This document shows, piece by piece, positions 7,278 to 64,000 of a stretch of DNA of 64,000 bases (position 1 is its first letter; each line of letters starts with the position of its first letter). The DNA comes from Marsupella aquatica (lineage: Eukaryota; Plantae; Marchantiophyta), in the NCBI GenBank assembly GCA_973895155.1, contig OZ316895.1, positions 15,630,816-15,694,815 on the forward strand, in the 5' to 3' direction. The position numbers and the translations under genes are program-made. The notes beneath the pieces were generated by a model. That model searched no databases, was not told where the DNA came from, and worked only from the letters and a program-made list of their open reading frames with translations.

Positions 7278-8264
7278 GGTCGCCCTTGCTGGCTGCTCAA
7301 TCCTCGTGCAGTGATCAAGAATGACAACAACTGGATCCTATTCTTTCCTCAGTAAGAAGGATGTGTCAATCCCGAAGTCGAAAATGATATATCAACTAGT
7401 GGAGAAGCAGATTTATGTTAAAACTCGCAGATGATAAAGTAATTTACAATTGTGAGCTCGTACGCTGGACTTGGACGACTTTCCATAGTAAATGTTACAC
7501 AGTCACTCGAGACTTCTGCTGCCACTTCATGACCAGGATTGACTCCGGAAACCGAGCTTGCTGGGGTCTGGACCGCTATTTAGTCAGTCTAGGCAGCAAA
7601 GAGGTATGCAACTGAGCTGCTGGACCCACTTTGGGATAAGAGTGATCGGGTGCATGCCCCGTTGAGTGGAGAAGGTTCAAACGGGTCTGGTCTCTTTCAA
7701 CTGGCAGACTTAGAATTAGTTTCGACACTAGATGTGGACCATAGCTCATCACACTAGTGAGCAGATGAGGACCATTAGTTCATCTCACTATAGCAGTGAT
7801 ATTTCCCCTCTTCCCAGCTTGTTCGGGTTAATTTTTGCACATTTATTTCCAGTTTGGTGTTTGTCGGCTGTGGACTTCTTTTTTGTGTTTTGCATTGTCC
7901 TTTGTTTGAATGGCCATGTTTGTAAATAAACTGACTGATTTCATACAGCAGGACTGGCGTGCGGGCAGACGCAAGCATGCCAAAGTCAAATGGGGAGTCT
8001 GCTGCGATGTTCACGTCACTCTTGTCACAGAATACCCCGATCGATGGATGAAGCATCAAGCATCAATTCTATAAAAAATGACGTCCACATCCGTGGGCGG
8101 AGTGGGATATGCTACTCTATGACCAGGATTACAACCTTAGTTGTTTTTCCGGATTATGGGGCCCGATCTTATTAGTTGTTTTCCCGGAATGTGGGGCCGA
8201 GTGCTTTGCTGTGGGTCTCTGGTCCACTCTCGGGTACGAGATTGGGTATCTGAGCGTGCTGTGT

Positions 8265-10945: not shown

Positions 10946-13134
10946 AAAACAGATTTTTAGTTTTCACCAATTTTATTAAAAATATAGAAGAAGTTTCAAA
11001 TTCCCCAATTCAAATCCAGACTGAGTGTGCATTCTCCTCTAAAATGCACCTAAAATTGCAAAGAGAAGAATCATGAAGGGTATTAAGTAGTTGGACTGGA
11101 GGTAGATCTTCTAAGGTGGAGTACATTGCTTCACCTCAATTTCATTTTTGGCACCAATAGTGGTTCAAGGTCATGGGGGCCCTAAAATGACACCATAATG
11201 TATTTCTTGCACACTATTGTACAAAAGGGCAGTATTTAAACCATTTTGTTAAGCCTATTGTGATCACATGATTGTAGGTGTTTACAGTTTAGGTGGTCAC
11301 GGGCCAGCCTCATTTACCAAACTTATTGTATGAATGGCAGTCACTTTCAATGGGACGCTCAATTTTTAGGGGGACTACATTCAGTCAGACTGGTGAGGAG
11401 ACAGACGATATGGAAAGATTGTGGCAAAAGTGAAGCTTTGTCGGGGAGGGGCTTGTGTAACACTAACTGGGGATAATGGTGGCAAAAAGTAACAGTCAAG
11501 TGTCAAAATACTCTCATAGTGTTCAATGTAAAATTGGTACGAAACCATTTTTGAAGTTTCCTGTTTTCCATAATCTTCTGCCCAGGAAGTCATGATCATA
11601 AACATTATTGTGTATCATATTTACGGACCCCATGAGAGGTCCCTTCCAGAATTCCTGGCACCAGAGCGTGCCACATTAACAACAATCGCACCAAACAAGG
11701 CTCGTCGGTTGTGTGAATCAAATTTACAATTTTCATTCGTGTTTGCGTCAAATTGAGTGTAAATTTTGGGACGCCATGCCATAAAAAGAAATGTAAAAAT
11801 TTAGAAATGCAAAGAGCAAGACGGGTAAAACTGTCACCTTGTAACCGTTTTAGTTACGTCTCTAATTTTAAAAATTAAATTCAAAGATTTGAAAAGTATT
11901 TTTCATATAATACACAATGACTATATAGCATGCTCATCCTGGAACATGCTTGGAGTTTTTTGTCTTGTAGTGATTTGAAAGTAAATAAAATATGAAAACA
12001 TAACTGGAAAGATTGGTGCACAGTGACCAATGAAAAGTACAATCAAGGATGCTAGGATGTGTGCACTTAATTCAATGTCCTCATGAATGACACTCATTTC
12101 AATAAAAACCATAAACTTAGGAAAGATAGACATGAGGGGAACTTAAGACACAGTCATAATCATTTCTCTCATTCATGAGAATGTTCAAGTGGTGGGAGCC
12201 GTTCATTTCATCTCTAATAAATCACAAACCTTAAAATTTATAAGGGGGCTGCCAAAATAAGTTCAAAATACTTTAGATACTAAAAATTAGAGGGGTCCAT
12301 AAATTAATTAAAAATGTATATGATACACAGGCGCCCCTTGATAAGGCACATTGAAATAAAAATATGTGACATGAAAACTCTGAATAAGACAAAATCTGAA
12401 AGGTGGATTCACCATATAGCAGTTCCAACAATTTCTAATAACTAACTTGATAACTACCTTGTTAAAGGGTAACTAGCACATGGAGAAAAATTTCCAGCCT
12501 TTTGCAATTCAGGCAAACTGCCAGCTATGGTCGGAACTTGAACTCAATGAATTCAATACAATTCATTTGATCAGACATTGATCTGGTTTTGAATGGACTT
12601 GCCACAAATTGACTATTGACTCTCTTGAGAATTTGGTTGCATGTAGGGAAAAGGCCTGATTTTGACAACTGCTTGTGATAAATCATGTTGTCGACTTTGG
12701 CCTGCAAAGCAAAGTATTCATGTGGCAGTTGAAAAAATGTCAAACTGCTCAAGCCATTGCTGAATGGGTCCACAATGATTTTATGAGAAAATCTATCCTA
12801 CTTATTCAACTCAACATGACTACCAGCTTCCCTTCCTAATCATACTTCTCTCTTCTTAAAGCTAGCTTTGCCCTAGCTTCTCCATTTGGTGAATAGATGC
12901 GTCAAGGTCATGAGGCTATTAATCTCTAATTCAAAACTAACCAAAGTCAGACTTCAGTGAAATCTCCAGAATTTCCAATTATTTGAAAGTACATTGACAA
13001 ATTAATCTTCTACAAATTAACAGGGCTCAACTACTAGAAAGCTTAGGGTTTGTTGTTGAGAAAAGTAGTCTTCTCAATTGATCTTGAGAAAGTAGTTTTC
13101 TCAACTCAAAGTACCCATGATCAGCCTATTCATT

Positions 13135-13410
13135 AAAAGTGTATTATTATTTGATTTATGTACATTTGGGCAATGAAAAGTGTACTTTTGGGCTTGGAAA
13201 AGTGTACATTTGGCCAATGAAAAGTGTACATTTGGGGAGAAAAGTGTACAATTGGCCTAAAGAGTGTATATCTGGGCAATGAAAAGTGTAAATTTGAACA
13301 TCAAAATAGGTACATTTGGCTTTAAAAGTGTACATTTGAGTACATTTGGCCTAAAAAGTGTACATTTGAGTGAAAAATGCATACATTTGGCTTAAAAAGT
13401 GTACATTTGC
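13135..13410. repeat. Left subterminal repeats AAAAGTGTACATTTGG, ~12 copies at ~20-bp spacing
   Basis: Directly visible; near-palindromic core AAAGTGTACATTT. Confidence 0.9.
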
Positions 13411-13660
13411 CTACCAACTCTTCTTATAATCATTTAAAAGAAAGGAATGAATAGAAAAATATTTTTAATTATGTAGAAAAAGCAAACATTCATATTCATA
13501 ATGATCAAAAGTTTAGAAAATGAGGAGATAGTATCAAATTAAAACTATTAGAATAGTAAATAACTAGTACGTAAATTACTATGTTTGAATGAGTGACTAT
13601 CTTAGTTACATAAAAACTAGTAACTATCTATTTAATCATTATAGCTTCTAACAACTAAGT

Positions 13661-16600
13661 CTACTTGTCCATCCTTTGAAGATAATTTTGGACAGTTTGT
13701 AGAACATTTTGAGGGATCTTCAAACCTCTGTCTGCCATGTTTTCTTCTTTCATTCCAGATTTAAAACCATACATTGCAGAATTTTGCATACTGCCAATGT
13801 TGAGTATTCTCACCAAACCTTGGATCTCGTTCCCATGTCTTAGTGGACATGAAACAATTTAGATACTGCGCACTCTCAGTCACATCAAGTTTAGAGTGTT
13901 TAGGCCTCCACCATTCAACTGGGAACATTGGAGCGTACTGTCGAGGCAGAGAAGGGTTTGTTGAAGATGTAGTTGGGACTTCATGCTTTGGGTCCACCAA
14001 ACCCAAAGCTCTCACCAACCAGAAATGACCTCCACCATTTTTATTCTCCCAATCATCCTCGGGTCGAAGAAATACAAAGTTTCCTTCACAAATATCCTGT
14101 AAAGGAATCCATCGTCCTTGTTCTTTCTCAGCTCGAGATCCAACAAATGGTGTTGCTTGATCTTCCATCTCTTCCAAGACCTCATTTTGAAGAGCCGTCA
14201 TCTCTGCATTCTCCTCATCTTCACTTGGAGGACCACTTTGTTCCAGTTGGTTGACCTTGTAACCAGTGCCGTGGTTAGTCTTAGGCCAAAATCTGTTTTT
14301 CAAGGGAAATTGAGTACTTCCCTCCCCTTCTAGTGCGAGCCCATTTGTCAACAACTCCACAATTCTCTCCCAATATTTCACAAGAGGAAATCTTCTCTTA
14401 TATGCTATAGATGTCTCATCAGTGCAACTCCTTCTCAAAAAATCAAGGTACTTGTTAAGAAATGGGATAATCTCTTCAGATTTTTTGTGTATCTCTCCAA
14501 TGGATTTAGCTAAGGGCTCTCCACTAGGTAAAAGAAGAGAATTTGTTGTCAGATCTGTTGCCCAAATGCACCTTCCACCAACTGGAGCCCAAGCTTGCTT
14601 TACATGGGACTTATACTGAAATATTGGTACATTATCTCTCATAGAGAAAAGAAATGATACAGGTTTTGAGTGACCTTGAATATCTTTCACCTTGAAAGTT
14701 TGAAGATATTCTTTGTAAGATGCAACTTCTTGTATCAATCTGGGAACTAGATGAATGCTCTTGCATTCCCATACCTCTGCCATAAGAGCAAGGAGGGTTG
14801 CAACTTCTTTGTGCTCAACTTGATATGATACCTTTGAAAAGAGTGCATCAACATCTTCGTGCGTATGACCAACCATTAGAAAAGATATTTGAACAGTTTC
14901 AAATACTCCTCTACTCACAAGCTCGCTACAAAATGCCATGACAGTCTGGTTTTTGTTGTCCTTTGCTGAATTATCCATCTGCAATGTTAGGTACCTTGGC
15001 AAGGGCTTGAACGATGGACTGCCTTGCTCTCCTTGCATGTCTTCTCCTTCATCCTCATCTTGCTGGTTTGGGTCGGTCTCAGTCCGACTCTCAGCTCCAT
15101 CTTCAGAACCAATATACCTATTCACCGGTATATTCTTTGGTTCCAAATAACCCGTCAAAAATGCTTCAAAGTCAAGTAGGGCTTGAAAGAAAGGTCTGTG
15201 AGGTTCCCAACGAAGGCCATCCAACATGTCACCTGTCTTGTCTCCATTGTACTCTTCAAGGTCTCGAAGACACTTAGCCAAGGATGTCACTGTGAAATCG
15301 GCATCTTCTGGCCAAAGGCCAGTGACACTAAAGTGTGCATAAACTCCTGGATCCCTCCCGTGGGTCAACATCCCTGTGAGAGCAATAGGTAGCGGCATTC
15401 CATGACCCGAAAGAGATTTAGGAGTACTAATCATTTTTAGAATCCATGTCTTTGCTTGATCCATCTTGTTGTGAATAATGCAAAGATATTCTCCTGGGTG
15501 TTGTTTGGCCATCACTCGATGAGCGTAGTAAACATATCTACGTGACATTTGCTCACAAAGATGTTGCGCTTGCTTTTCTTCAATTTCAGCACGTTCTTTT
15601 TTCCTTCATTCTCGCATCAAACTGTCTTTGTATTCACAACAAAGAGTACACTTGGCAAATGCACCATCTTTATGAAAACTGAAGTTTTCAAATGAGTTGC
15701 TCTAGATCTTGTAGAGAGTATTCTCTGTGACAGGAGGAAGCCCTTCTTCCTTCATCTTTGTTCTCACATCTTCTAGAATCTCTAGCTTCTTGTAACACGC
15801 CGGAAGACGGTACTCAATAGAGTCTATCCCATGTGCCCAGGCTCCATAAGGCATATGAGGCATGGGCTCTGCATTTCGAGTCAAAAAAGCCTCCAACAGA
15901 GCTAGTGCATGCAAGGTATTTGCCCTTGTTTTCATCAAGCCCGTATTGCCATGGAACCCAATTTTGCAACCCTCCACATATCTCCTTTTGTAATCATAAT
16001 ATTTGGTGTGGCTAAAACCGTGGATAATTGCAAATGCATGTCTGCATATGACCATACCCTTAAGAACATGGTGTCCCTTATCACAAACATCATCCGCTAT
16101 AGTGAAAGAGGTTGAAAATGTGTGACGTTTTTGACTTGCTTGACATCCCATGAAATTCCATCCTAATATCTTCAATGTTTTCCCTTGGCATAATGAGACA
16201 ACATTTTTGCTTGCAACAATTTTCTCTTTTCACGTCATCAATTGACGCCTCTATTGTTTTTGAAATTGCCTTGGTTTCCAACAACCTCCTCTTCTTTTCA
16301 TTCGGATCTACTTGATTCCTCTTGTTAAAATTGTACTGCCTTGAACGCAGTACTCCTCTATCACTTACATCCGCATTGAGTTCATCCCTATCCATTGAGT
16401 CCATCCTCTCAGAACCTTCCACCAAAATGTCTGACAAAAATTTTCCATTTGCAACTAGTTTTGTTGAATCAATCCGCCATCGAATCAAACTCACTACTCC
16501 CTTGTGGATGTTGGGAAAGTATTGTGCTACCACAACATCTTTCCCAGCAATCCCAACATGGTCATCACCAAGAATTTCATCATCAACTGCTGCTGTCACT

Positions 16601-17440
16601 TGAGGGAGAGTGATCATTCCAGTAGCAACCATTTTGGTTCGATCCAAACCAGTGTAGAGTTCAACCAACTCTGACATCCAGTTTGCCCGATGAAAATAGT
16701 CACACTTAGTGTCCATGGTGTTCGCCAAACAAGACTATGAAACAAAATTTGCCTTGTCCTTCTGCTTCTTAGAGGAAGATTTGTTGCTCCCATCAATATC
16801 AACATTCCATACTTTATTGTGGACGTCAACTACATCCCATAGAACCCAGGAGCCCTTTGCCTCTTCAATTGTTGCAGCTCCACCATGTGCGTAAGGTAAA
16901 GTCTTACTACCATGAATCATATCTGTGATTTTTACACTAACCCGAGATTCACCGAGTAATATGTTATGACATCTCTCCATTGGATCGGTCTTGAAAACAA
17001 CTCCAAAGGCCACACAATGGCCAGAGATAAACATTTCAACCTCATCGCCTGGCCTTAGGGTGGTTGAAGCATCCTCCTCTACATTTGCAAAATTATGGAT
17101 GTTGTTATCTTTTCGAGTCGAACAACTACCAATACTGATGCATTTTTGAGTAATCTTATCAGTAGATCGATATGCACATGACATATCAAAATGACACATG
17201 AGTCAATGGCATCATGAAGATTTTCTGCCCTAGGCATTGGAAAAGGGAGCTTCCTAGTCTCACCAAAGGCCTTCTCAATGAGAACCCCAATTCGATTCTC
17301 TCCCAGCACAATATTTTGAACACTCTCTCGCGGATCTGTCTTTTGAACTGTCCCATTTCCAACGTCGTAACCATCGATTGTCAAGGTAACATCATCGCCC
17401 CTAGAAAACCTTTGAGACATCCTTTTCCTATTATCCTGCA
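13661..17440 (-). pseudogene. Transposase pseudogene: three Transposase_23/TnpA-like modules, Cys-rich region, DUF7869/Sola-like DDD core, C-terminal BAH/SH3-like segment
   Basis: Stitched from ORFs 17079-17471, 16735-17199, 16090-16728, 15702-16175, 13761-15548 and a frameshifted tail ending TAG at 13661. Motifs CCKQKCC, ICRHAFAIIHG, FAKCTLC, IHNKMDQ, LQMDNSAKDNKN, FLMVGHTHEDVDALFS. Several frameshifts and in-frame stops; splice acceptor near 17441. Confidence 0.85.
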
Positions 17441-17479
17441 CACTAAAAAAAAGGATTAAAACCAAACTCATGCAAATTT

Positions 17480-18205
17480 TGATTCAGACTACTATCCTCC
17501 AATTTTGGATTTGGACTAGGACCATTCGAGTCCGGATTTGGACTGCAATCCTTCGGGTCTGGATTTGGACTACGATCCTCCGACTTTGGATTTGGAACGG
17601 GACCATCCAAGTCTGGATTTGGACTGCAATCCTCCGAGTCTGGATTTGGACTACAATCCTCTGATTCTGGATTTGGACTGGGACCATCCGAGTCCGGATT
17701 TGGACCGGGACCATCCAAGTCTGGATTTGGACTGCAATCCTTCGAGTCTGGATTTGGACTATGATCCTCCGATTCTGGATTTGGACTGGGACCATCCCAA
17801 TCCAAAGTTGGACTAGGACCATCCCAATCCAAAGTTAGACTAGGACCATCCAAATCCAAACTAGGACTTGGACCATTCCAATCCAAACTTGGACTCGGAC
17901 CATCCCAATCCAAGCTAGGACTTAGACCATCCAAGTCCAAACTTGGACTCGGACCATCCTAATCCAAAGTTGGACTCGGACCATCCAAGTTCAAACTTGG
18001 ACTCGGATGATCCCAATCCAAAGTTGGACTCGGACCATCCTAATCCTAAGTTGGACTTGGACCATCCCAATCCAAACTAGGACTTGGACCATCCAAGTTC
18101 AAACTTGGACTCGGATGATCCCAATCCAAAGTTGGACTCAGATGATCCCAATGCAAAGTTGGACTCGGATGATCCTAATCCAAACTTGGACTAGGACCAT
18201 CCTAG
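17480..18205. repeat. 27-bp minisatellite, ~26 copies, many units an imperfect palindrome
   Basis: Units TTGGACTCGGACCATCCCAATCCAAAG (right half) and TTGGACTGCAATCCTCCGAGTCTGGAT (left half). Confidence 0.95.
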
Positions 18206-18894
18206 ACCAACCCATGATATAATGGGAGATAAACTTCAAACATCTTAAGCTAAGAAAAATCCAAATTTAGGAAGACCCCGTATTTTACGGATCTCCCTAT
18301 ATGGTGTAGCCTAAAGTTTGCGTGGTCTTAAGGCAGACCCTAATGTCTACATACAGTTTCATGAAATAATGGAACCTTATATTTGAATGCATTAACCTTA
18401 TACTCACCTTAAGTAGTATTAAGATCTGGTAGAAGATGAATATCACATCCAAGGGGTATACATTGTTGTTTGAATATTGGTAAAAACTTCCCAGAACCTT
18501 GAAATACAAGCTATATGCCACTAAATCTTGGGAGTAAAAAACAAACTGAACCCTAAACCACACATGTCTGTAAAAGATAAACTGAGAGGACTCCAAAAGT
18601 CAAGAAGCTGGCTAAGCTGACCCAATGAAGGTAAGTGGCTCAATACATAACACTTTAAGAGAAACTCCACTCCGGATTACATGGAGCTTAGATTTGGGAA
18701 ACTAGAACAAGAATGAGCTCCGAAGTGGGCGTCTCCCAAATTATACCCTTCGCTTGAGTCGGCTCAACCGGAAATTGCGTGAAGATAAGGGTTGAGTACG
18801 CGTTCACCTTAGCTTGCGGACACACCTTATCTTCACAAGCCTAATTGCGCGGGGACTACCATGGAAGGCTGTTAGGTAGGCAGGATATCAAGGA

Positions 18895-19240
18895 AGGAAG
18901 CCGTATGCAAGGTGAGGGCAACGGGCCGTACGCAGGAGCAGGCCGTACGCCAAAGCAGGCCGTACGCAGGAGAAGGAGGCAACCGGCCATACGCAGGCCG
19001 GGGTGAGGCAGGAGGGGGTAAAGGGATGGAGAGGTCCAGCAAGGACCTCATTCTCATTCTCTCACTCCTCGCTCTCTCGCTCTCTCGCTCTCCTCTCGCT
19101 CTCCTCTCGCTCTCCTCCTCGCTCTCTCGCTCTCCTCCTCGCTCTCTCGCTCTCCTCTCGCTCTCCTTGCTCTCTGCTCTCCGCTCTCCGCTCTCTCTCC
19201 GCCTCCCCGCCTCCGCCTTCCGCCTCCACCTCCATTCTTT
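18895..19240. promoter_or_regulatory. Probable divergent promoter/leader region of the transposon: GC-rich GCAGGCCGTACGC repeats and a (CTCTCG/CTC)n pyrimidine tract
   Basis: Lies between oppositely oriented genes; CT-rich tract 19050-19230 resembles plant Y-patch/GAGA leaders; function inferred. Confidence 0.45.
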
Positions 19241-19464
19241 TTTATTGCCCTAGATTGGATGCCTGCTAAGATGCCACGTGTCACGCTGCCATGTGTTAGA
19301 AAGATGGAAGTGAATCACGTCCTTGTGATGTCCTACGTGGAAGAAACGGAGGAGTTTGACCTCTCCTCTATGAGCGACAGTGTGGAACTAGCACTCAAAA
19401 ACTCCAGACAATTTCAATCACGAATCCCTAGTAAGTATCCATCACCTATTCTCCCTAAGTCTTA

Positions 19465-19671
19465 GAGGACTGGGACCATCCCAATCCAAACTTGGACTCG
19501 GACCATCCCAATCCAAACTTGGACTCGGATGATCCCAATCCAAAGTTGAACTCGGACCATCCCAATCCAAAGTTGGACTCGGATGATCCTAATCCATCTA
19601 GAAGATTGAATCCCGATTGTAGGAGCAAGTCTAAAACCATCTCAAGTTGGACTATGACCATCCTAATCCAA
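19465..19671. repeat. Second cluster (~6 copies) of the 27-bp palindromic unit
   Basis: GGACTGGGACCATCCCAATCCAAAC, TTGGACTCGGACCATCCCAATCCAAAC etc.; follows a GTAAGT donor-like site at 19431. Confidence 0.9.
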
Positions 19672-19710
19672 CAAGAGTTATTCAAATGTTTTAAAGGTTT
19701 TAAGTCTAAC

Positions 19711-22700
19711 ATGGATGACGTTTATGATGCAAGGAGCGATCTTGTTGTTTTCAAACCCGCGATTGCACCGACCCACTGCCTGGACGGATTCTTACTAGAT
19801 GAGAGATCCCCACGCTTCTGATGGGGGCTTGAGTTCTCAAGAACCCCGCTTAATAATGAAGTGCCATCAACCATGATTGAACCTGTTTTGACCTTAAAGT
19901 GCAGAGAAAATGATAGCCTGACTTTTGTTTGCGGACCTGTGGTCTCTGTTGGCATTGGAGGGAGAGGGATGAATTTGGTCATTGTCGAGATGCACGATAG
20001 GTCCTGTTGGGTTAGAGTTAACCTTCTGTCAAAGGCATACTCCTCTGAATTCAATGTCGAATGGCACGCAAGTGGGGAATTGAGCGTTTTGTCAATGGGA
20101 TTTTTTCCAAAGACCTATGACACAAAGAAGTTGGTCGCCGAGGTAACTGGTATGCTTCCAGTCAACATTATGTACGGGTTTCAATATTTGAAACTCAACA
20201 TGATGAAGCACCAAGGCAATTTTTCTTTTGCAACTACCTGGACGTTAAGCAATTTACTTGAGAAAGCTGGATTGTTATTGTTGGAGTTGGAGGAGCCTGG
20301 TGTTTTAATTGATAAGGATGTTGCATTTGCTCCCAAGTTTGATTTAGTCAAAGCAAAGCAATGGATAGAATCTTTGTCCAAGACAAGAAAGCTTCCAGCG
20401 GTGAATACAAACCCTGTGCCCGAGCAAGCGCCAGAGAAAGCTCCAGAACCTACAACAGAGACCGCGGGAACTACAGCAGCGACCTCTCAAAGAGCAGTGG
20501 GAAAACAAAAACAAAGCCAAAGGAAACCTCCGGTTGAGAAGCCGAGTACGAGAAGCCGAGTTGAGAAGCCAGTTGAGAAGAAACGTCCGGTTGAGAAGCC
20601 GATTGCAAATGAAAAGAGGCCAAGACAGAAGAAGAAACAGAAAATTGACAGTGCCATCATGGATGACACTACAGAAAACCTGACAGTGTATTCACAAGAT
20701 GTGGACGAGCAGTTGGACGCTCCTGAGGAGAAGAAGGCCTTAGAAGGTAATGAGGTACTACAACAAATGGAGCAATATTATACGTTTGGGATCAATTCGA
20801 TATTTTCTATTCCTGTAGACAGTATTTTCCCTGCGTCAGCAAGACTCTGTTACATCATGTTGAATGCAGACCATGTAAAGGAGGTGGCCAATTCCGTGAT
20901 AAGAAATCCGGGGCATGAACCACACATAGCAGACTTGATTCCTTACACTACAAAACATAGAAACCTAATGCAGTATGACAACACAGAATCAGATAGGAGG
21001 GACTTTGTAGCAGCCGTGAAAAAGGGCAAGGTTCAATTCCTTGCCATTAGCGGTCAACATTCGGCCAGAGCAGCCAGATGGATTCAAGAATGGGCAAACA
21101 AGGATGCCAAGCTGACAGCATTGGCGAAAAAGCTGGAATTTCGAAAGTCAAGAATATTATCTCATCGAACACCATCGTCAATATTAGTTGAGCATTCAAT
21201 GTGATCTAATGCGATCAATAGCATGATGGTGTTTCAGTCATGCTTCAATTATACAGTCGTTCATGCTAGGCGACAATTTGTGGAATGTGGAAAACCTAGC
21301 CGGCCAAAACATGGGGACAACAAAACAAACGCTCAAGACAATCAAAAATTTCAGGTACGAAGTGTTACTGCTTGATGGGTACAATACCGTAGATTCATGC
21401 ACATTCAGTAGAATATTTCCACTGATATCGCCTAGTTTTGCGTTGGACTAGGATGGTCCCAGTCCAAATGGATTCATACACATTCGGTAGAATATTTCCA
21501 CTGATATCGCCTAGTTTTGCGTTGGACTAGGATGGTCCCAGTCCAAATGGATTCATACACATTCAATAGATTATTTTTCCACTAATACTGTCTAGTTTTG
21601 TTCTGGACTGGGATGGTCCCAGCCCAAACTAAATCATGCACATTCAATAGAATATTTCCACTGATACTGTCTAGTTTTGTGTTGGACTGGGATGGTCTCA
21701 GTCCGCACCTGAGTGCTTTCAAACAATTGAGTTATGGAGAACTAACAGACTTTCCTTTGCAATTGTAGGATTGGTTGGCTCTTGCAAGAATGACCATGGG
21801 AAGGAAAGATTGTCAAAATGTTTACTGGTTACTGTTTGCGGACAATGCTCTTTTTGAGTTATGGAGTTTGGTATGCCAGTTGTGGTTGGATGGGAAACTT
21901 CCCGATGGAGCTGGGGTAGAAGGAAATGAGAAGTCTGAAAAAGCAATTACTGTTGCCATGTTTCGTTATTTTGATGGTGAGTTGATCTCACAACGAGACA
22001 TCACAAGAATACTGACACGGGTGAAGTCAGGAAAGGTATTGCTAAAGAAAGATGCCTCTAATAAATCAGACATGCCATCTATAGAGGAGTTGGCCAAAGA
22101 TGTGGAGATCGTGCGGAAACTAAAGTCCCTTATTGAAGACTACTATTGCACCAAGGATGCGGTGAATTTCCCGGCAAATACTAATTGGGGGAAAGTAGTG
22201 GAGGTTCTTCCTACGCTAGCAATTGATTCAGAGTTCAGAAGGTGTCGAAGAGCCACTGGCAAGGTCTATCTTGCCAACCTTTTAAAGCCAAATCATACAC
22301 GGGAGAGCGCAATCTTGCCGACGACATTGGCATTCCGCCTAGATGATTTACATTACCAGAAATTTGGTGGAGGATCACGTTCTCGGACCCTACCATGGGT
22401 TACATTTTTTAGCGACAATCTCATGAAGACCATTGATCCAGAGTCATTGCAAGAAGCTCCTCCGACCTGCCCTCTTGCCATTGTTGATTTTAGCCGGCTT
22501 CCGCAAAAACAATGGACTGAAGCAGAGATTCTTGTTCTCTTTGAATATATTGTGGAGCTTCCACAAAATCCCACGATTGTTGTGACAATAACAGTTCATC
22601 CTGGACAACTTGCATGAATGTCCATGGTGCCCTTCGGAAACTGGGACAAGAGAAAGTTTTGACCATTCACATTGAGTATGGGAGTTATTCTTGAGATGAT

Positions 22701-24149
22701 CAACCGCACCCTCATGACTCATGTTGGGGTGGGGGGATTGAAGAAGTTATCTTTGCAGGGATTTCTCGAGACGAAGACGTCAATTGGAATGAAGTTTTCA
22801 AGCCCAACTATCCAAAGCCAAAATTCTTGTATACTTCAAAGGATGTTGATTACGAAGTATGCAAGATCGACAACTAAGGGAAAGGGGAAGGCTAAGGAAT
22901 CAGATGAGGGGACACAAAACGACGACCTAAAAGTGGTTTTGGACCCGGAAGAGGCCGTCAAGATTATGAATATGGCCCCTCGATTTGAGATAGTTGGCAA
23001 TCGCAGAGGGTGGGTTAATCCTCATGCCAAACCCACGCGGATGATCCGAAGGATTATTGAATCCTTGTCAGAACCGGGAGATTTGGTTCTAGATTTTTTC
23101 TCCGGTGGCCAAGTCATGAAGGCATCATTTTTTTGCGGATAGGGAATGCTTTGTTTATTGTGACTCTCACTCCGAGAGGCATTTTGTGGAAGCTTTTGCT
23201 TCCTACCTTTGCGAGAGAGTTCCCTCACTTAAAGCTCATTGTGAAACACTTGCTGAAAATTCTCGATAATGGGCTACCGTTGTTGCGGTTGTAGCTGTCG
23301 CTGTTGAATCTGATGGTTCTGAGTCTGAAGAAGTTGCTGATAAAGTGGCTGAAGGCGTAGAGGCATCAGAGGAGGCATATGTCAAGAATTTGGATTACCG
23401 TGTTGGTCAAGGTGAGCCTTACGATGTAGATGATGATATTGGACTTGCACCAAACCGTTCATCTGGTTTAGATGACATCCCTCCGGGGCCCAATGAAGTT
23501 TGAACAAGTTGATGATAACTTGGACAAGGATGATCCCAATCCAACAACGCCGGGAGGACAGATGGAGCAACTGGAAGGAGCAAGGGTTGATACGTTTGAT
23601 CATCTTTCTTCAACCAATCTGATCAATGAAGGCGCAACGAGGCTTGGAGATTCAAATGAAGCTGAAACTAAAGAATTGACTCGGGGGGAGACTGGCGGAT
23701 TGCCTGACATTCCGATCAATCCAGGAGGAAATGCATCAACGGTTGCTGACAACCAGGCAGGTGCTTCAACTTGTCCTGAGACACTCTTTTCAGCTTCTGA
23801 TGACAAATTGGTGTTTGTTCGTTCACACTCGGGGAGTCCTATTGTCGTTCCACTCTCAAAAAAGAAAGGAAATAGAGTTGGATCAACTGGATGGAGGTCA
23901 TTGGAATGCGATGCACGATGTTACGTGTGGAAAAGTGGGCCAAATCAAGGCCAAGAAATATCATTGGATGCTGCTCCTTCAATTCTCAATAAGGAGGAGT
24001 ATAAGAGGGGAGAATTGGGGTTGATAACTCCTGTTTAGACTTCACCTTATTGGGTAGAACAAAGTACTTCAGATGTCAATTTTGAAATCCAACAGGAGCT
24101 TGGTGCTGACATGATTATTGATGAATACGGATCTCTTATTTTGGAATGA
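19711..24149 (+). pseudogene. Transposon cargo gene: N-terminal unknown domain, K/P/E-rich linker with NLS-like stretch, ParB-like domain, helical region, beta-class N6A/N4C DNA-methyltransferase-like domain, acidic tail
   Basis: ATG 19711 is in frame with ORF 19861-21204 across two TGA stops. Phase-0 intron 21355-21768 (GTACGA..CTAAC..TGTAG) joins ORF 21775-22617. ParB-like LNADHVKEVANSV and FLAISGQHSARA; MTase-like LAIVDF..IEEVIFAG..HAKPTRMIRRIIESLSEPGDLVLDFFSGG..(D)RECFVYCD. Several frameshifts; 3' end approximate. Confidence 0.75.
21390..21705. repeat. About four ~88-bp tandem units inside the cargo-gene intron, most ending in the palindrome TTGGACT(A/G)GGATGGTCCCAGTCCAA
   Basis: GATTCAT.CACATTC..TAGAATATTTCCACTGATA...CTAGTTTTG.GTTGGACT.GGATGGTCCCAGTCCAAA repeated. 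Confidence 0.9.
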
Positions 24150-24321
24150 AATTCATCCTTTGATTTTTTTTTTTCATATCAATCTAAAATACTTCTCGGT
24201 CTCACAGAATGCGCTCACCAATTAAAGTCTCCATATCCGTCTACACATTGTGAGGCTTCTAAAAATGATATGTAGGTTAATTTTCTTTTTTGTCAGCCAT
24301 TGTCTTGTATTTTTGGACTGA

Positions 24322-25345
24322 GACAATCCTAATCCAAAGTTCACTTTTGGTCTTTTCTCTGAGAATGATGCACTTGCAGAATCGAGACCTGGTCCTGTCA
24401 AGCGGAAGTTGCTGATTTTGGACCTTAATAAAATACTTTGGGATTCTATTGAATTCCAAAGCAAGGGCACATCCAGGAATATTGTCACCTCAAGTGCATT
24501 GGGATAGAAAAAATGGTATTAGTCGCATGTATACAGAACGACCAGGGCTCCATGAGTTTCTAAAGTTGGTTTTTGACAGATTTGACGTTGCAATTTGGAC
24601 ATGTGCTGGGATACCGCGAACAATGAAAATGTTGAACATGATGTTCACTGATGAGGAGAGGTCAAAACTCCAGTTTGTATTCACACAGGTGGAAGATTTT
24701 GACAAAGGCGTGACATTACAAACGGAAAGGCAAATGTGCTACTAAAGGATTTTCAGGTGGTATGGAATGCATTTGGAAATCTATATGATGAAACCAACAC
24801 CCTCCTTGTGGATGACTCCCCCCTTAACTAAGGCATTTGCCAACCCAGACATGACTGTATTATTTCTAGTGCCCTACACGCATGCCAATCGTGGAGATAA
24901 TTTTCTTCTAGCAATTCTTTGGCCATGTCTTGAGAGACTATCACATGCAAGTGACATTCGATGTTATCTTCTTCTCAACTCTCCAAAGTGGTCTCTTTTG
25001 CACATGAAGAGAGACAAGGCAAAAAATGAGATTACTTATGATCAACTTAGCAAGAGATTTGCAGCAAAAATTTGGAAGTCACAGTTTACGCATAGTGTGT
25101 TGGACCTCAACAGCAATGAGATCCCTTGGAATGTAAAGCACCGTATATGTAGTTTACGTCCTGAGGCGGAACTTGACAATGCACTTGTCAACTCACTTGC
25201 TAAATCATTTTTAGGAAAGGACTATTCAGGTCCATATAGAGAAAATCCCAGACACTTTTTGCGGGAGATTATAGCCATTAGGAACAACACCACCAGATTC
25301 AACTCCCTGAAAATAAAGGGCGTTGCAACCGTGACAATAGGGTAG
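24322..25345 (+). pseudogene. FCP1/NIF-family HAD-like phosphatase pseudogene (transposon cargo); start uncertain
   Basis: Across frameshifts: RKLLILDLNKIL (HAD motif I variant), RPGLHEFLKLVFDRFDVAIWT, LLKDFQVVW, NTLLVDDSP, KAFANP. Confidence 0.8.
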
Positions 25346-25654
25346 ATAGGAAAGGAGACAGGGGCACATGCTCAAATACACATTGTATAGAGCACTTGGT
25401 TTAGATATTTAATTGACTTGTGTTAATCCCATTGGATAGTACCACAAATATTTTTGTATTCATTGTAAATTTGCAGATAATTAGATAAAGATATTTTATA
25501 ATCTACATGGAATGATGTTATTTTGTTCACACAATATCTGGTCCTTAAATGGGGATGAAATATTTTTATAAGTTCCTATCCTCCACTGCTCTGTGAATTA
25601 TTAAATAATATAATATGTATTATTTATTAATATAATACTAATGTGATTCGGCCT

Positions 25655-25737
25655 ATAAAGTGTACATTTAGAGACACAAAAGTGTACATTTGGGTGTCTT
25701 GAAGTGTACATTTGGGGCCATAAAATTGTACATTTCA
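25655..25737. repeat. Right subterminal repeats AAAGTGTACATTT, 4 copies
   Basis: Same motif as at the left end, ~21-bp spacing. Confidence 0.88.
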
Positions 25738-26104
25738 AGACTCATTTGTGAACAAAAGAAAATACATTTTTAATGAATAGGTTGATCATGGTACTTTAGT
25801 GGTTGAATACAGTGTCATTCAATGCCCAAATTAACTAAGTAAAAAAATTGTGCCTTGGGTTTATTAATGTTTTAAAATTAGCTAAAGTATCTCATATATT
25901 TTAAGTGTTTTAATGTCTGCTAGCATAGCATTATGAACCATATTAGCCTCTCAAAACTCAAGCTCAAAGCCCTCATTTTACTGGTCATTATGAAGACTAT
26001 TGCAAAATCACATTAGGAAAAGATAATTTATCCTATATTTTCACTAAATCGTGTAAACTATCTCAACATAATAAAGTGTGTTACCAGATCATTTTGGACC
26101 ATAA

Positions 26105-26448
26105 TGTTGAGCATAGATGACATTCGCAATTGCAAGCCCATGAACCATCCAACGCACAAGAGTCGACACAGAGAGATACGTGGTTCACCTCCACATGAGG
26201 CTACGTCCACGGGAACACACAAGAGCTTTACTGCACTCTAGGCCGACCGACTATACCAAGCATCCACAGAGCAAGCTCTCCCTATCTCTCAACTAGCTCC
26301 GTAACAATGAGCCTAAGTTCCACCAGGGTCTGGCATCAGCCCTGGCTTAATACACAATAGCACTACCGCTAACATTAGCTAAGTCCTAACCCAAGTTAGA
26401 CTAACTGTGGTTAGCTCATGAGTCACAAGACTAGAGCAATATCTAACA
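26105..26448 (-). mobile_element. Solo LTR (344 bp) of the adjacent Copia family
   Basis: TGTTGAG...CTAACA; 5-bp TSD CATAA on both sides; highly similar to LTRs at 26594 and 32916. Confidence 0.95.
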
Positions 26449-26593
26449 CATAATAGATAGACTCACACAACTTGAGCTAAAGCTAATATCACATACATTA
26501 TTTTTACTCAAACAAGGCCTCAAAAATGTAGCTAGCGGGTCAGACACAAACTAATTACGTATATGTTTATGGTCCTGATATGCTCCTTAATGG

Positions 26594-29500
26594 TGTTGAG
26601 CATAGACGAATTTGCAACTGCAAGCCCATGAACCATCCAACGCACAATAGTCAACACAGAGAGATATGTGGTTCACCTCCACATGAGGCTACGTCCATGG
26701 GAACACACCAGAGCTTTACTGCACTCTAGGCCGACCGGCCATACCAAGCATCCACAACACAAGTTCTCCCTATCTCTCAACTAGCTCCGTAACAATGAGC
26801 CTAAGTTCCACCAGGGTCTGGCATCAGCCCTGGCTATATGCACAACAGCACTACCGCTAACATTAGCTAAGTCCTAACCCAAGTTAGACTAACTATGGTT
26901 AGCTCATGAGTCACAAGACTAGAGCAATAGAGCAATATCTAACAAACTCTCTCTTGACTCTTGTCTTGGGGACTGAACTAAATGCTACCATATGGAATCC
27001 TTAGCGGGAAGTTCTAGACAATCACCGAACCAGGTATCCCCCTAAAAACCACAAGGGTTAACTAAGGGTTAACTAGAACTAAGCCGTAGCCAAATAGGAA
27101 TGAGTAATCCATATACAAATAGTCGCACATTGCTAAATAACTCTACTTGCACTACAATTGCAAAACCTGCAAAGTAGCACGGTGTTTTGAGAAACTCTCC
27201 AAAGGAATCACTTTGGTAAAGGCATCAGCGGGATTGAGTTTTCCATCAATCTTGACTAGCTCAAAAGTTTTATCAGACACTGCTTGCCTGATAAAATGGT
27301 ACCTGATATCAATGTGCTTCACCCTGCTATCCATCACCTGGTTAGCAGCCAAGTGAAGAGCACTCTGACTATCACAGTTTAGAGACATTTTGCCATACTC
27401 TAAACCCATCTCCGTGATCAACTTGTTCAACCAAATTGCTGCCTTTGCTGCTTCTGTTGCTGCAACATACTCTGCTTCTGTAGTAGACTGAGATATACAC
27501 TTCTGCAAGGTAGATTTCCAACTGATACATCCTCCTCCAAGAGTAAATACAAAACCAGTTACAAGTAGACCTCCTTGTATCTAGACAGCCTCCATAGTAA
27601 GAATCTACATAGTGAACTAATGTTCTATCTGATCTCGCATCAAATAGTAATCCATAGTCCTATGTACCCTTCAGATACCTGAGAATCCATTTCACAGCTT
27701 CCCAATGTACCTTCCCTGGATTTGACATGAATCTGCTAACCTTGCCTATCGCCTAGGGCCAAGTCAGGCCTAGTACAAGTCATCAAATACATCAGACTGC
27801 CTACTGCCTTCTCATAAGGAATCTTAGCCATCAGACCTTTCTCCACAACATCCATAGGAGAGAAAGCTGATGATAACTTAAAATGTGAAGCTAAAGGAAT
27901 ATTCACTGGCTTACAATTTTCCATGTTGAATCGTGCAAATACTTTCCTCGCATATTGGCCTTGACTCAAGCACAACTTTCCAGTTTCAGAGTTCCTAAAA
28001 ATCTCCATCCCTAAGATCCTCTTGGCCTTACCAAGATCCTTCATCCTAAATTCAACACTCAATTTTTCCTTGAGACTGACAACCTCAGATTGATCTTTAG
28101 CCATAATCAGTATGTCATCCACATAAATCACCAGAATGATGAAACCAAATACATCATTCTTGACTGATTTCGTATACACACAAGGATCATATACCATCCT
28201 TGTAAAACCTTGAGCAAGCATGAAATCATCAAACCGCTTGTTCCATTGTCTGGGAGACTGCTTCAATCCATACAAGGACTTGAGCAATCTACAAACTAAG
28301 TTCTCTTGGCCCTTCTTCATAAAGCCTAGTGGTTGTCTCATGAAGATCATCTCTTCCAAGTTGCCATAAAGAAAAGCAGTAACAACATCCATCTGATCCA
28401 TCACCAGACCAAAAAACACAACAAGCTGACACAAGATCCAAATTGTGGAATACTTAGCCACCGGTGAAAAGACCTCATTGTAGTTCACTCCTTTCTCCTG
28501 AGTGAACCCCTTGGCAACAAGCCTTGCCTTGTAGATCTTATCTCCATCCTCTGAAGGACTGTCCTTCAACTTGTAAATTAATCCACTTGTTGTCCACCAC
28601 TTGTTGACCTCTTGGAAGCTTCATGAGCTCCCATGTCTTGTTGTCACTCAAAGATTGCAACTCCCTCTACATTGTTGCATTCCACTCATGCTTCTGCTCT
28701 GAAGCACAAGCCTCACTGTACAAAGAAGACTCTCTTTCTTCCAAGATCAAAGCCATATCATCATCATCAGGTGCAATGTCAATATCATCTAGCTTAGATG
28801 AGTCTGCCTATTGACTATACCTGGTAGGAGCTCTAGTAGAACGATTGGAAGTTCTTCTAGTAGATGACTCAGGCTGATCTGCTGCTGCTGGTTGAATTTG
28901 AGGTACCCCAATAAAAATCTGCTCCTCTTGTTCCATCATAGGAACCAACTCCAAGCCCGAAGCTTCTCCATCTCTCCTGTCATGAACAACATCATGACTA
29001 ATCTCCCCCTCAACCCGGTCCGGGATGGGAGATTTTCCATTGTCAGTATGGGAGTCCTGAGAACTCTCCCCTTCCTTTGATGATCTGGATTCATTAAAGG
29101 ACACATCTCTACTGACAATTAGCTTATAGGTTACTGGATCCCATAACCTATAGCCCTTCACACGTTTCTGATAGCCAAGGAAAATGCACTTCTTCAACTT
29201 GGACTCTAGCTTGGATCAATGCTGGGAAGGTGTAAGCACATAAGCATCACATCCAAAAAATCCTCAGATGTGAGTAATCTGTTGGACGCCCGTGCCTCAT
29301 TTCAAATGACGTCTTGAATCCAATAGAACTGGATGGAGAAAAATTTACCAAATAAGCTGCAGTGTTGACAACTTCAGCCCAAAACTCATGTGGTAAGCAT
29401 GATTGACTCAACATACTTCTCAAGCGATCCAATAGTGTTTGGTTGAGTCTCTCAGAAATACCATTCTGTTGAGGAGTATAACTTATTGTGAGATGGCGGG

Positions 29501-32500
29501 TAATCCTCTGCTCCTTACAATACGTTCCAAATTCCCCGGAACTATATTCATCGCCATTATTTGATTGAAGATATCTCACCTTATTACTAGTTTAATTTTC
29601 AACTTGGGCTTTCCATTCCTTAAAAGTGGCAAAAACATCAGACTTACTGTGAATAAAGTATATCCACACATACCTTGAGTAATCGTCTATGAACGTGACA
29701 TAGTATAACCATCTAGAATGTGAGGGAGTAGGGGCTGGACCCCACACATCACTATGTACATACTCAAGTACATGCACTATCTAGAATCTAGTCATCACTA
29801 CCTGGATTTGACACTACGTTGAGAGCAGAACCTTGACATCACAATATGTCATCGTCATCGAGTAAATCTATCTCATGCGAGCTCGATGCGGCGTTAGCAG
29901 ATGCAGTAGGGACCTTTACTCGAAAATCCCTTTTCATGTGGCCAAGCTTGCCACAATTCCAACATGCAAGAGGCTTCCTCTCTTGCGATTTCCCTCTGGA
30001 TTTAGATCTCCCCCTGATGTAGATCTAAACTTGTTCAACTTGTTTGAGCGTTGCACTGCTCTCCCACGGTTCACATTCAGCACAGTGCTAGAAGAAGATG
30101 CTGTCTGTGTTTGACTCAACTTCTTCTGAGTATCATTAGACAGTAAGGAGCTCACCACCTTATTATACAAAATGGACTTTAGATCTCTATACAAGAGCAC
30201 ATGTTTCAAGCCTTGATATGACGGCAGTAAGGAGCTTAGCAGAAGCAAGGCCTTATCCTCATCTTCAACTCCTTTTGCCAGGTTTGATAGATCCACCACT
30301 AGACTGTCAAACTCATCCAGGTGATCCTGCAACTTGCTCCCTTCCTTGAGCCTGAGGCTCATCAAAAGAGATTTATTGTACAATCGATCTGACGCATCTT
30401 CCCGATAGTACTTCTCTGTTAGAGCCTTGAACAGTGATGCACAGTCGTCATAATCATCTAGCTTCTTGATGATATGCGGCTTGAGGTATAGCATCACTGC
30501 ATTGACAGCAATCACCTGCTTCTGTCTCTACTGCTTCACATAAATCTTCTCCTCTCCATCATACTGCTCTCGCAAAGAAAGCAGATGAGCTAAGCCCATG
30601 GCCCAAAGAACACCCTTCACTTGCTTCTCCCACAACAAGTAATCAGTACGACCATCATACTTCTCCACCTCAAACTTCACTCCTCCAAATCTTGCCATCT
30701 CTCTCTTCTTCCCAACTACCAATAGCTCTGGTAGTAGTACAGCTTCCTCCACTGCACGCCGCACCGGTGAGCGTACCGGTGATACTAGTTCCTCCTCAAA
30801 CGGTAGCAGCTCCTCCTCAGACTCTCCATTTGATCGTCACGATCCTGAAGCTCCACCGATGCCAATTCTTCCAGTATCCTCCGAGTCACTCATATGAAAC
30901 AATCACGAAAAACCATTTTTTTTGGAAACTTCTCATAAAACTCAAAACTCAACACTGCCACGTAGCCCACGAAGCTAGGAGTCCAATACTGAAAGCCAAA
31001 ATCAAAATCAAAAATTTGAAAGAAAAGTTATTCAAATTTCGGTCGGGGTGGGGATAAAACCTTGGGAAACTCCCTTGTTTTGACCACCTCGGAGAATAAC
31101 CAAAATACCAAGTACAACCCATCGTCAGAATTGGGATGTGATTGGTGCACCGCGTCACTAACTCCAATGGCAACGTCCTCGCCAAAAAAGAACCAAAAAA
31201 GTTATCGTTTGGCGGACAAAATCTTCATGGGATGGCCAAAAAACAACTCTTTGTTTTTTGGGAATATTCTTGCACAGCCCGATAGGTCTCACAGGGGGCC
31301 ATTCCCCCTGTCGGAGCGGTTAAAATGGAGGGCGACAGGTCCCGACACAAGAGGAAACAAGAGGGAAGAAAAACGCTCGGGGGGTTGACTATCAAAAATC
31401 TTAGGAACCATGTGCGATCCAAAATAAGTATTTTTGATATAAATTAACTAAATATTTAAAAAGCATAGGAGGCAAAAGGAGGTATTATAAACTCATGTTC
31501 ATAGAATATTCTCTAATATATACTTTTTATAAAGTAAAATAGATTATTAATATTAAAATAGAGAATATTATTGGGATACTTTCTTTATAAAATAGGTCTA
31601 TTTATATTAGGCTAGGATCGCACGTGGTACCCCAAAATATACACTTAGTTAACCCCCCGAGAAAAAAACGGCTAAAAATAGGGCCCTAAAGGGGGTCCAA
31701 ACACACCTTAATAACAAAATACACTCAAAAACGCGGGCCAGGCAATGTACAGGGTATGCGCGAGTGTGGCCGGGGTAAGCCTGGGCGAATATGGGCGTAA
31801 AGGAGGGAATACAAGGCAGGGCCGGGGCCGGAGAGAGCGACCGGCGGCAGTTGCTCGCCGTCGCGAGGCGCAGGGCTGGGTAGGGCTTAAACACGGCCGG
31901 CAGGTCGCATGTTAACCCTAAGGGGGGGGGGGTGCGGGGCCTTAAGGGGGAGACGCAGCGAGCCCCTTAATGTACATGGGCTCGCAAAGGGCCGGGGGGG
32001 TAAACGCGGCCAGCTGCGGCTGCAAATGCGCCGGCCGGCACTGCGCAGCTTGCCGCTGCAGTAAGGAAAAATTGGGGTGCGCGGGGGAGATACCAGAAAA
32101 GAGGTACGCGGGGCCGGGCAAGTGTAAGGGTAGGAGGGGGGCTCGAGTGTGTGTATACACACCCTTGTGTGTGTATACACACAAGAGACCCCCTCTAAAA
32201 TGAAAAATTAACCCTTAAAAACTAAAAATCCGTTTACACACCTGATCAGCCGCAGTTTACTTGAAGAAAACGATGACCTCCGACGGGTGAAGTTGCCAAA
32301 TTTCACCGGCACAGTCTGCAAGTCCAGCACTGAAAAAAAGTTCCGCCGCGTCGCCTTCACCCCGCGTCAAGTGCCAATCTCAGGCTCAAAAGGACCGCCT
32401 CACCGAGATCAAACCGTTGAGCCGTAGCACTTTGCGTTTCTCCCACCGAGTCGTACATCACAAAGAGAAACCCGGTTCAGATGGGAACAAGCTCCATAGC

Positions 32501-33259
32501 TTGTGAAAAAACCTGAACGCCTCCTTCACTCGTCACGTCACAGTCAGTAACAACTCGGCAGCAATCCAGCTACCGGAACGACCAGCTCGCGTCAACCTTC
32601 AACTTGAGTTATAATGTGCAATCTCCCGATCACCGCACAGCTCACATCGTTGAAAATGCGAAGTCTGGTCTCTCCCCCGAAAACCCGTTGAACACGAATA
32701 AAACCTGAACGACGCAAACTTCAATTCCTCCGCACCACGGATACCGATCAGCGAGTTCTAACCATCGTTAGAACGCTCTCTCACTAACCTATCCGCACAG
32801 CCACACACATTCGAGTTTCATGCGACGAAACTCCGAATGTACCATCGACAATGAACGCTGGAAAAACCTGTTACGAAAAAACCTCGTCACCTCCCAGGCA
32901 TGCTCGGATACCACTTGTTGAGCATAAACGACATTCGTACCTCCAAGCCTATGAACCATCCAACGCACAATAGTCGACACAGAGAGATACGTGGTTCACC
33001 TCCACATGAGGCTACGGCCACGGGAACACACAAGAGCTTTACTGCACTCTAGGCCGACCGGCCATACCAAGCATCCACAGCACAAGCTCTTCTATCTCTC
33101 AACTAGCTCCGTAACAATGAGTCTAAGTTCCACCCAGGGTTTGGCATCAGCCCTGGCTATATGCACAACAGCACTACCGCCAACATTAGCTAAATCCTAA
33201 CCCGAGTTAGACTAACTGTAGTTAACTCATGAGTCATAAGACTAGAACAATATCTAACA
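26594..33259 (-). mobile_element. Ty1/Copia LTR retrotransposon (Tnt1/Tork-like), defective
   Basis: LTRs 26594-26944 and 32916-33259, TG..CA ends, TSD AATGG, PBS TGGTATCCGAGC (32902-32913), purine-rich PPT next to the 3' LTR; order gag-(PR)-INT-RT-RNaseH. Confidence 0.97.
27152..30698 (-). pseudogene. Copia gag-pol remnants
   Basis: gag GVKFEVEKYDG and zinc-knuckle remnant; integrase VHSDVWGP/FIDDYSR/PQQNGISER; GYRLWDP; RT YKARLVAKGF, QMDVVTAFL, LYGLKQSPRQW, IYVDDILI; RNase H STTEAEY, CDSQSA, KHIDIRYHF, NPADAFTK; many stops and frameshifts. Confidence 0.95.
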
Positions 33260-46900: not shown

Positions 46901-47227
46901 TTTGAATTTGACGTGCAAGTTTTTTTGTGATGATGGCTCCTGCAGCTCACTTGATCGTCTCTGCGGCATCTGGGACTTCCGGTTAATCTGGTCTGAAGAG
47001 CAACAGAAGAAATTAAGAACCTCGCCCGGTTTCTCCCCCTGTCCAGTGCGATTTGTCCCTGCGGACGGACGGACAACAATTTTGTGACGGAGAGCCCTCA
47101 CTTCGCTCGGGAATTCTTTTGATTACTCCCACGAAGTTCGAATTGAAGTAATTAGGGTTGGGGCTCGGGAATATTTTCGATTGTTGACAGGAAGTTTGAA
47201 TTGAAGTGACTCAGGGTTGGGAAAGGG

Positions 47228-53349: not shown

Positions 53350-53770
53350 TGTTGGGTATTTACTCTTACGTCTAGGTTAGGTATGACGTGGTTGGTACAA
53401 CAACGTGGGTTGGTACAACTACGTGGTTAGGTACAACTACGTGATTAGGTACAACTATGTGGTTAGGTACAACTACGTGATTAGGTACAACTATGTGGTT
53501 AGGTACAACTAAGTTGCACACTATATCATAAGAGGCATGTGTGCTTGGAGAGGTAGAACCAAGGCTCATTGTTATGGAGCCACTTGAGAGATAGGGAGAG
53601 CGTACACTGTGGAGACTCGGTATAGCCGACGGGCTTAGAGTTCAGTAAAGCTCTCTTGTGTGTTCCCGTGGACGTAGCCTCAAGGAGGTGAACCACGTAT
53701 CTCTTGTGTCGACTATTGTGCGTTGGATGGTTCATGGGCTTGCCGTTGCGATCGTCGTCTATGCTCAACA
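53350..53770 (+). mobile_element. Solo LTR (421 bp) related to the Copia family at 26594, opposite orientation
   Basis: TGTTGG...CTCAACA; TSD GAGCA on both sides; 3' part is the reverse complement of the family LTR (CCCGTGGACGTAGCCTC..GGTGAACCACGTATCTC..GTGCGTTGGATGGTTCATGGGCTTGC). Confidence 0.93.
53386..53510. repeat. 18-bp tandem array (~7 copies) inside the solo LTR
   Basis: ACGTGGTTAGGTACAACT and variants. Confidence 0.92.
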
Positions 53771-63949: not shown

Positions 63950-64000
63950 GTAATGACAGTTGCCGGGGTACTTGAGCATTTCTTTCTAAATTCTTTGCGA

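Follow-up and report, generated by a model that had tools for sequence, protein, structure and literature searches.

A broken transposon gene with a beta-class amino-methyltransferase-like domain in the liverwort Marsupella aquatica

A 64,000-nucleotide stretch of the Marsupella aquatica genome (contig OZ316895.1; hereafter the window, whose own numbering is used throughout) carries a 12.7-kb element at 13115-25791 that is bounded by terminal inverted repeats (TIRs), contains a DUF7869 transposase gene and is flanked by what may be a 3-bp target duplication. A second gene of this element encodes a domain resembling the prokaryote-type beta-class amino-methyltransferases. We consider it a broken copy of a transposon accessory gene whose intact protein would be a non-catalytic, DNA-binding and possibly S-adenosylmethionine (SAM)-binding scaffold, a reading to which we give a probability of about 0.6. 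The protein is likely unable to methylate bases because the catalytic DPPY motif is absent from every relative examined. Judged from the sequences, the whole family likely consists of pseudo-methylases, in which the proline-proline-aromatic (PP-aromatic) signature was lost and the fold and SAM-side motifs were maintained, not decayed.

The methyltransferase-like domain and its fold

The domain lies centrally in a gene about 1100-1300 codons long, which begins upstream of 20740 and ends near 24140. The gene and the coding piece behind it are laid out as follows.

19822-21354 (+): upstream coding part, a basic disordered stretch and then a ParB-like region; start not fixed
21355-21768 (+): predicted GT-AG intron of phase 0, with a 79-bp repeat inside (splice sites; relative P0001)
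21769-22386 (+): helical domain, kept across the family (family alignment, model)
22387-23260 (+): beta-class amino-methyltransferase-like domain, broken (PF01555, PDB, fold model)
23261-24140 (+): acidic disordered linker and small C-terminal domain, ending in IDEYGSL (24117-24137)
24412-25342 (+): broken NIF/FCP1 phosphatase-like gene or exon (PF03031, 20.9 bits, below the 21.8 cut-off)

The peptides on which the original prediction had based a methyltransferase-like domain are all present, spread over three frames: LAIVDFSR (22474-22497), IEEVIFAG (22737-22760), NPHAKP (23017-23034, motif X), VLDFFSGGQV (23086-23115) and RECFVYCD (23141-23164, the motif II site). Within them, DFSR at 22486-22497 takes the place of motif IV and DFFSGG at 23092-23109 that of motif I. 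The frameshift supposed to precede RECFVYCD does exist, near 23137, but it is not the only break; the domain is also interrupted by frameshifts at about 22614 and 22880 and by an in-frame TGA at 22692.

A 159-amino-acid (aa) piece of the domain (22663-23139) scored 31.2 bits against PF01555 (cut-off 26.7; E 2.7e-07), and all five of its matches at E<=10 in a PDB sequence search were beta-class amino-methyltransferases (RsrI twice, MboIIA, CcrM and PvuII). Relative P0001 scored 23.4 bits against the same cut-off, and 42 of the 114 members of the family alignment, from which C-terminal-only fragments and near-duplicates had been left out, matched PF01555 at E<=0.01. For the family profile, the best solved structure was the N6-adenine (N6A) enzyme M.RsrI (E 1.3e-08), and PvuII was not among the matches. 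An AlphaFold model of P0001 built on the 114-row alignment reached a mean predicted local distance difference test score (pLDDT) of 74.8, the domain blocks lying mostly at 84-98; a single-sequence fold of P0001 residues 1-530 was of no use (pLDDT 32). In VIA-align, residues 245-525 of the model aligned with CcrM over 217 residues (Z 18.1, root-mean-square deviation 4.0), and every one of the top 20 rows was a permuted DNA amino-methyltransferase. The best Foldseek matches in PDB were CcrM, MboIIA, PvuII, HpyAVI and RsrI, and METTL3-METTL14 was found among the structural neighbours. The model predicts a circularly permuted Rossmann fold with the catalytic strand before the SAM-binding motifs. 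The methyltransferase-like domain is borne out by these comparisons, which support its homology to prokaryote-type beta-class amino-methyltransferases.

With the beta-class enzymes CcrM, M.RsrI, M.MboIIA, M.PvuII and M.BceJIV, the window domain shares a predicted fold of about 210 residues, the motif order IV...X-I-II and the sequence of motifs X and I. In contrast to them, the family has DF/L-x-x in place of DPPY or SPPY, a motif I one residue short and a variable motif II acid, and its domain sits in a eukaryotic transposon protein of about 1200 aa, encoded by a gene with a predicted intron.

Motif IV and the SAM-side motifs

When aligned profile to profile, the family and seven phage methylases matched over 219 columns (probability 95.4, E 1.8e-08), and the aspartates of DFSR and DPPY fell in the same column; this, together with the structural matches, agrees with the earlier placement of DFSR at motif IV. 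The first residue of the motif was D in 50 of 53 rows, E in two and K in one; proline occurred in none of the 53 at the next two places, and an aromatic residue stood at the fourth place in one. F or L followed the first residue in 49/53 and W stood nine places on in 47/53. The third and fourth positions were free, giving 27 different 4-mers in the 53 rows. A search of 169 family proteins for [DNSH]PP[YFW] at any position returned none. The caution that the domain might be a catalytically dead derivative thus holds for all rows of the family alignment, none of which has a PP-aromatic motif IV. The SAM-side motifs were well conserved, with K in 64/71 and N or H in 58/71 rows at motif X, and D in 60/69, F in 62/69 and the two glycines in 60/66 and 59/66 rows at motif I. 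Both motifs fell among the 30 best-conserved columns, across lineages less than 20% identical.

According to Box 1 of Iyer 2016 (PMC4738411), the prolines and the aromatic residue of motif IV hold and prime the target base, and the rotifer N4CMT study (PMC8885841) reports that changing SPPY to APPA abolishes activity. By this motif test, the family belongs neither to the active PF01555 enzymes nor to the SPPY-type DN4MT1/N4CMT group, and PF01555 matches in liverwort genomes are not necessarily active writers of N4-methylcytosine (4mC) or N6-methyladenine (6mA).

An active methyltransferase with a rewired site, which would need no PP-aromatic loop to methylate DNA, RNA or protein and might, for instance, mark the element's DNA, is in our estimate unlikely. 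It would account for the nearly invariant D of motif IV, the F/L and W that accompany it and the strong conservation of motifs X and I, and the C5 methyltransferases borne by retrotransposons are reported to be active (PMC5890265). Such an enzyme would nevertheless have to work with neither prolines nor a terminal aromatic residue, with variable third and fourth positions in motif IV and with a motif II acid in only 24/61 rows.

Several observations weigh against the non-catalytic scaffold. D279 and motifs X and I are strongly conserved, as would be expected of an enzyme. The SAM-binding part of the reading is weakened by motif I, where DFFSGG is one residue shorter than the DFFAGSG of RsrI, and by motif II; in beta-class amino-methyltransferases the motif II strand characteristically ends in an acidic residue, and D or E occurs there in the 24 of 61 rows just mentioned, the window copy having D. 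A profile of ParB-fused phage enzymes placed DPPY on a conserved EP(F/Y) about 30 residues upstream of DFSR (probability 84). The range of the P0001 model covered by VIA-align favours the DFSR register over this one, and the idea that EP(F/Y), at P0001 247-249, is the catalytic motif in a shifted position was rejected, since the model places it ahead of the first strand. Further points are that the ParB-like assignment is weak (hhalign probability 1.6), that the 65 of 215 profile matches beyond the best 150 could include active forms, and that linkage to a transposase was seen at the window locus alone.

Relatives, origin and possible roles

A 282-aa piece of the window had no match in Atlas, and a sequence search with it yielded a single long relative, from Calypogeia fissa (47% identity); the modelled protein P0001 is 47% identical to this piece and aligns across the predicted intron junction without a gap. 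A six-row profile gave 215 matches at E<=1e-3, 146 of them at 1e-10, among 1.84 billion representatives, and the best 150 of the 215 were taken forward. All ten species-named rows among 14 looked up were from Calypogeia, and four of ten divergent matches looked up were from Riccia sorocarpa. The named hosts are therefore the liverworts Calypogeia and Riccia; most matches carry no taxon, so the range may exceed liverworts. None of 33 pattern matches in viral contigs proved to be a relative by the family profile, and one of 195 metagenome candidates did (L001, 1.8 kb, too short for context).

In a tree of 23 domain-spanning rows from the 114 plus the window sequence (X at its breaks), these 24 family rows lay on one side of a 100/99 branch and 11 phage enzymes on the other; the tree is midpoint-rooted, with a narrow outgroup and two long branches. 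Several deep lineages were present within the family, three of them with Riccia rows. A single loss of catalysis before the family radiated would be the simplest reading of this distribution. The preferred explanation starts from one capture, presumably from a bacterial or phage N6A-type enzyme, followed by one loss of catalysis that would predate the liverwort radiation of the family.

The original prediction had gone further and proposed the transposon as a vehicle or reservoir of active N4-cytosine methyltransferases such as Marchantia MpDN4MT1 and rotifer N4CMT. This does not hold up well. The family shares its fold class and plant group with MpDN4MT1, and the N4CMT structures match the P0001 model (Z 14.6-14.9), both systems placing a prokaryote-type beta-class fold in a eukaryote. 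However, MpDN4MT1 is reported as a beta-class 4mC enzyme with TSPPY that acts in sperm (bioRxiv 10.1101/2021.02.12.428880), and N4CMT has SPPY (PMC8885841). These are active host genes with (T)SPPY, whereas the family is mobile and multi-copy, keeps D and has neither S nor PP at motif IV. Among solved structures, the N6A enzyme M.RsrI resembles the family most closely in sequence, and PvuII is absent from the family-profile matches. That the element gave rise to active plant enzymes of this type is highly improbable, and a distant common origin of the family with MpDN4MT1 and N4CMT is possible.

The region in front of the domain is weakly ParB-like. It contains LAISGQHS at 21040-21063 and a premature TGA at 21202, and had no match in Pfam, PHROG, NCBIfam or PDB. 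Aligned with ParB by hhalign, it scored 18.5 against at most 13.3 in 20 shuffles, with SGQHS on GHGR, the counterpart of the GHxR motif that marks ParB; the match is weak (P 0.032). The full-length members P0162, P0101, P0105, P0140 and P0166 carry the SGQHS region in front; for full-length P0162, tblastn found no match in phages. Phage ParB-methylase fusions (e.g. L010, 417 aa) likewise have a ParB-like region before a beta-class domain, and the top viral fold match of the P0001 model was a 494-aa phage protein named ParB; the family differs from these fusions in the 200-residue helical domain between the two parts. Language-model features of region 20740-21354 reached 0.95-0.96 to fungal DUF3723 and cnidarian clusters in Atlas, which suggests a possible wider eukaryotic family of ParB-like transposon proteins.

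The phosphatase-like piece behind the gene is fused behind the methylase-like protein in P0058 (Riccia), P0106 and P0134, so that the order of the window recurs in Riccia proteins; NIF was matched by 4 of the 114 family rows. The canonical first motif of FCP1-like phosphatases is DxDxT; at this place the window has DLN and the Riccia-type proteins have DVE, so this neighbour may be altered too. The small C-terminal domain (23730-24140), with the family ending D-E-Y-G-S/T-F, had a pLDDT of 80-95 in part of the model and no Pfam match, no search with this domain alone having been made.

The frameshifts of the window copy were compared with related DNA, found in six public sequencing runs from three organisms; no RNA run was among those listed. 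All 30 bins of the element were covered in each run by hundreds to thousands of contigs, at 80-100% identity and in several identity bands. In 12 listed rows of 78, which did not extend to the break near 22880, contigs from four runs had no frameshift at 22614, 23137 or 23501, and these three are therefore specific to the window copy. This bears on whether the gene is simply a passenger, a captured fragment with no role for the element whose conserved residues are structural only, as the broken window copy and the many truncated database members would allow; motifs rich in glycine and aromatic residues can persist because folding requires them. Besides the contigs free of these frameshifts, there are intact members of 800-1000 aa in lineages whose identity is below 20-35%, and the window and Riccia have the same order of domains; one intact member is CAM6082376.1, with the domain at residues 243-528. 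We regard a passenger as quite improbable.

On the preferred explanation, an intact protein comprising the ParB-like region, the helical domain, the pseudo-methylase and the acidic linker would bind the element's own repeats, candidate sites being the subterminal repeats or the 27-bp arrays found in the intron and between the divergent genes. Such binding may help transposition or keep the element transcribed, and the FCP1-like domain might connect the protein with RNA polymerase II. Inactive partner subunits occur in this fold (Iyer 2016, PMC4738411), and METTL3-METTL14 is a structural neighbour, so a METTL14-like subunit can be imagined that pairs with a host DN4MT1-type enzyme and blocks or redirects sperm 4mC, or that reads methylated bases. 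The named hosts are liverworts, a group with a beta-class 4mC enzyme active in sperm; the family may also occur beyond this group, and this role seems decidedly unlikely. A bolder proposal, speculative and rather unlikely, would make the protein a SAM-binding phage-type ParB-methylase turned into an epigenetic weapon of the transposon, acting through DPPY-free chemistry or, inactive itself, by pairing with the sperm 4mC enzyme of the host to hijack or block it, with a captured phosphatase domain for the C-terminal domain of RNA polymerase II.

Predicted-dead amino-methylase domains have been described in transposons before. DIRS1 retrotransposons keep N6A-methylase domains predicted to be inactive, for which nucleic-acid-binding or RNA polymerase II-linked roles were suggested by Iyer, Zhang and Aravind 2016 (PMC4738411). 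As described there, they belong to another structural group (probably from PCIF1) and form part of a retroelement polyprotein, whereas the present family is of the permuted beta class and is carried by a cut-and-paste DNA element. In Symbiodinium and Klebsormidium, retrotransposons also recruited a DNA-methylase domain, but these are reported to be active C5 enzymes in retroelements (PMC5890265). No description of the family was found in the freely accessible literature searched, and FFSGG was absent from the text of the Iyer 2016 supplement (676,414 characters). The family appears to be a previously undescribed case of a prokaryotic amino-methylase fold entering land plants, where a DNA transposon retained it in liverwort lineages of deep divergence once the catalytic loop had gone. 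As a candidate new kind of accessory or anti-silencing protein of transposons, it occurs in the only plant group known to use 4mC, and its intact relatives provide a concrete testable protein.

The element and its surroundings

The remaining features of the element are listed below.

13112-13114: candidate target-site duplication TAC, left (flank comparison)
13115-13153 (+): left TIR, 39-nt arm, 87% match
13159-13413: left subterminal 22-bp repeats with a TGTACATT core (repeat search)
13761-17483 (-): broken transposase gene; DUF7869 part at 13761-15605
17487-18202: tandem arrays of a 27-bp unit, lying between the divergent gene pair; more copies at 19467-19596
25657-25735: right subterminal 22-bp repeats (repeat search)
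25753-25791 (-): right TIR, pairing with 13115-13153
25792-25794: candidate target-site duplication TAC, right (flank comparison)

At the best ends, 28 of 30 terminal bases pair, TAC flanks both sides and the ends read CCATG. A TA duplication with a CCCATG end, one base having been lost at the right end, is equally possible, and the target-site duplication is accordingly given as 2-3 bp, from one copy. The TGTACATT-type repeat occurs nine times at the left end and five at the right, once in the 11.9-kb interior and once in the 51 kb outside. The minus-strand transposase matches DUF7869 in Pfam (E 7.7e-44), which we take to be a DDE transposase domain; the literature search returned no paper naming it as such. 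Its residues include DN..KDNKN (14949-14984) and GHTHEDVD (14847-14870), and the pieces at 15702-17483 were assigned to the gene by position alone. The element has the TIRs, candidate target-site duplication and internal transposase of a cut-and-paste DNA transposon, and the TIR arms, TAC flanks and DUF7869 match confirm that the methyltransferase-like domain lies inside a transposon.

CACTA/EnSpm (CMC) elements have CACTA-type ends, target-site duplications of 2-3 bp and subterminal repeats. Subterminal repeats and a 3-bp duplication are present here, with ends reading CCATG rather than CACTA, and a Pfam scan of the window gave no Transposase_21 match. A CACTA right end at 25797-25801 had no clean left partner and was replaced by the ends at 13115 and 25791.

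Both flanks (12500-13114 and 25792-26100) are repetitive in the public runs, and read depth failed to mark the element ends because of this. The empty site would form the palindrome AAAGTACTTT, which suggests insertion into another repeat at a palindromic target. In one contig of run X1, positions 13109 and 25793 are linked by 15 letters of other sequence; this is possibly an empty site and was not relied on. The 27-bp arrays have self-complementary TTGGA...TCCAA ends and may be sites for an element protein, and related units occur in the intron (21392-21704) in inverted orientation.

The surroundings of the element are plant-like. They contain a germin-like cupin exon (6837-7337), a KIN17 gene with a single open frame of 420 codons (47210-48469) and the N-terminal exon of a 2-oxoglutarate-Fe(II) dioxygenase (63360-63950). 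A broken copia-type retroelement (26105-33232, -) has three related 300-bp repeats resembling long terminal repeats (26122, 26610 and 32933), to which an inverted piece at 53552-53770 is related. Pieces of an endonuclease and a reverse transcriptase like those of long interspersed nuclear elements lie at 39824-44024 (-), and an inverted-repeat element of about 840 bp, similar to miniature inverted-repeat transposable elements, with arms of 120 and 94 nt, occupies 54461-55302.

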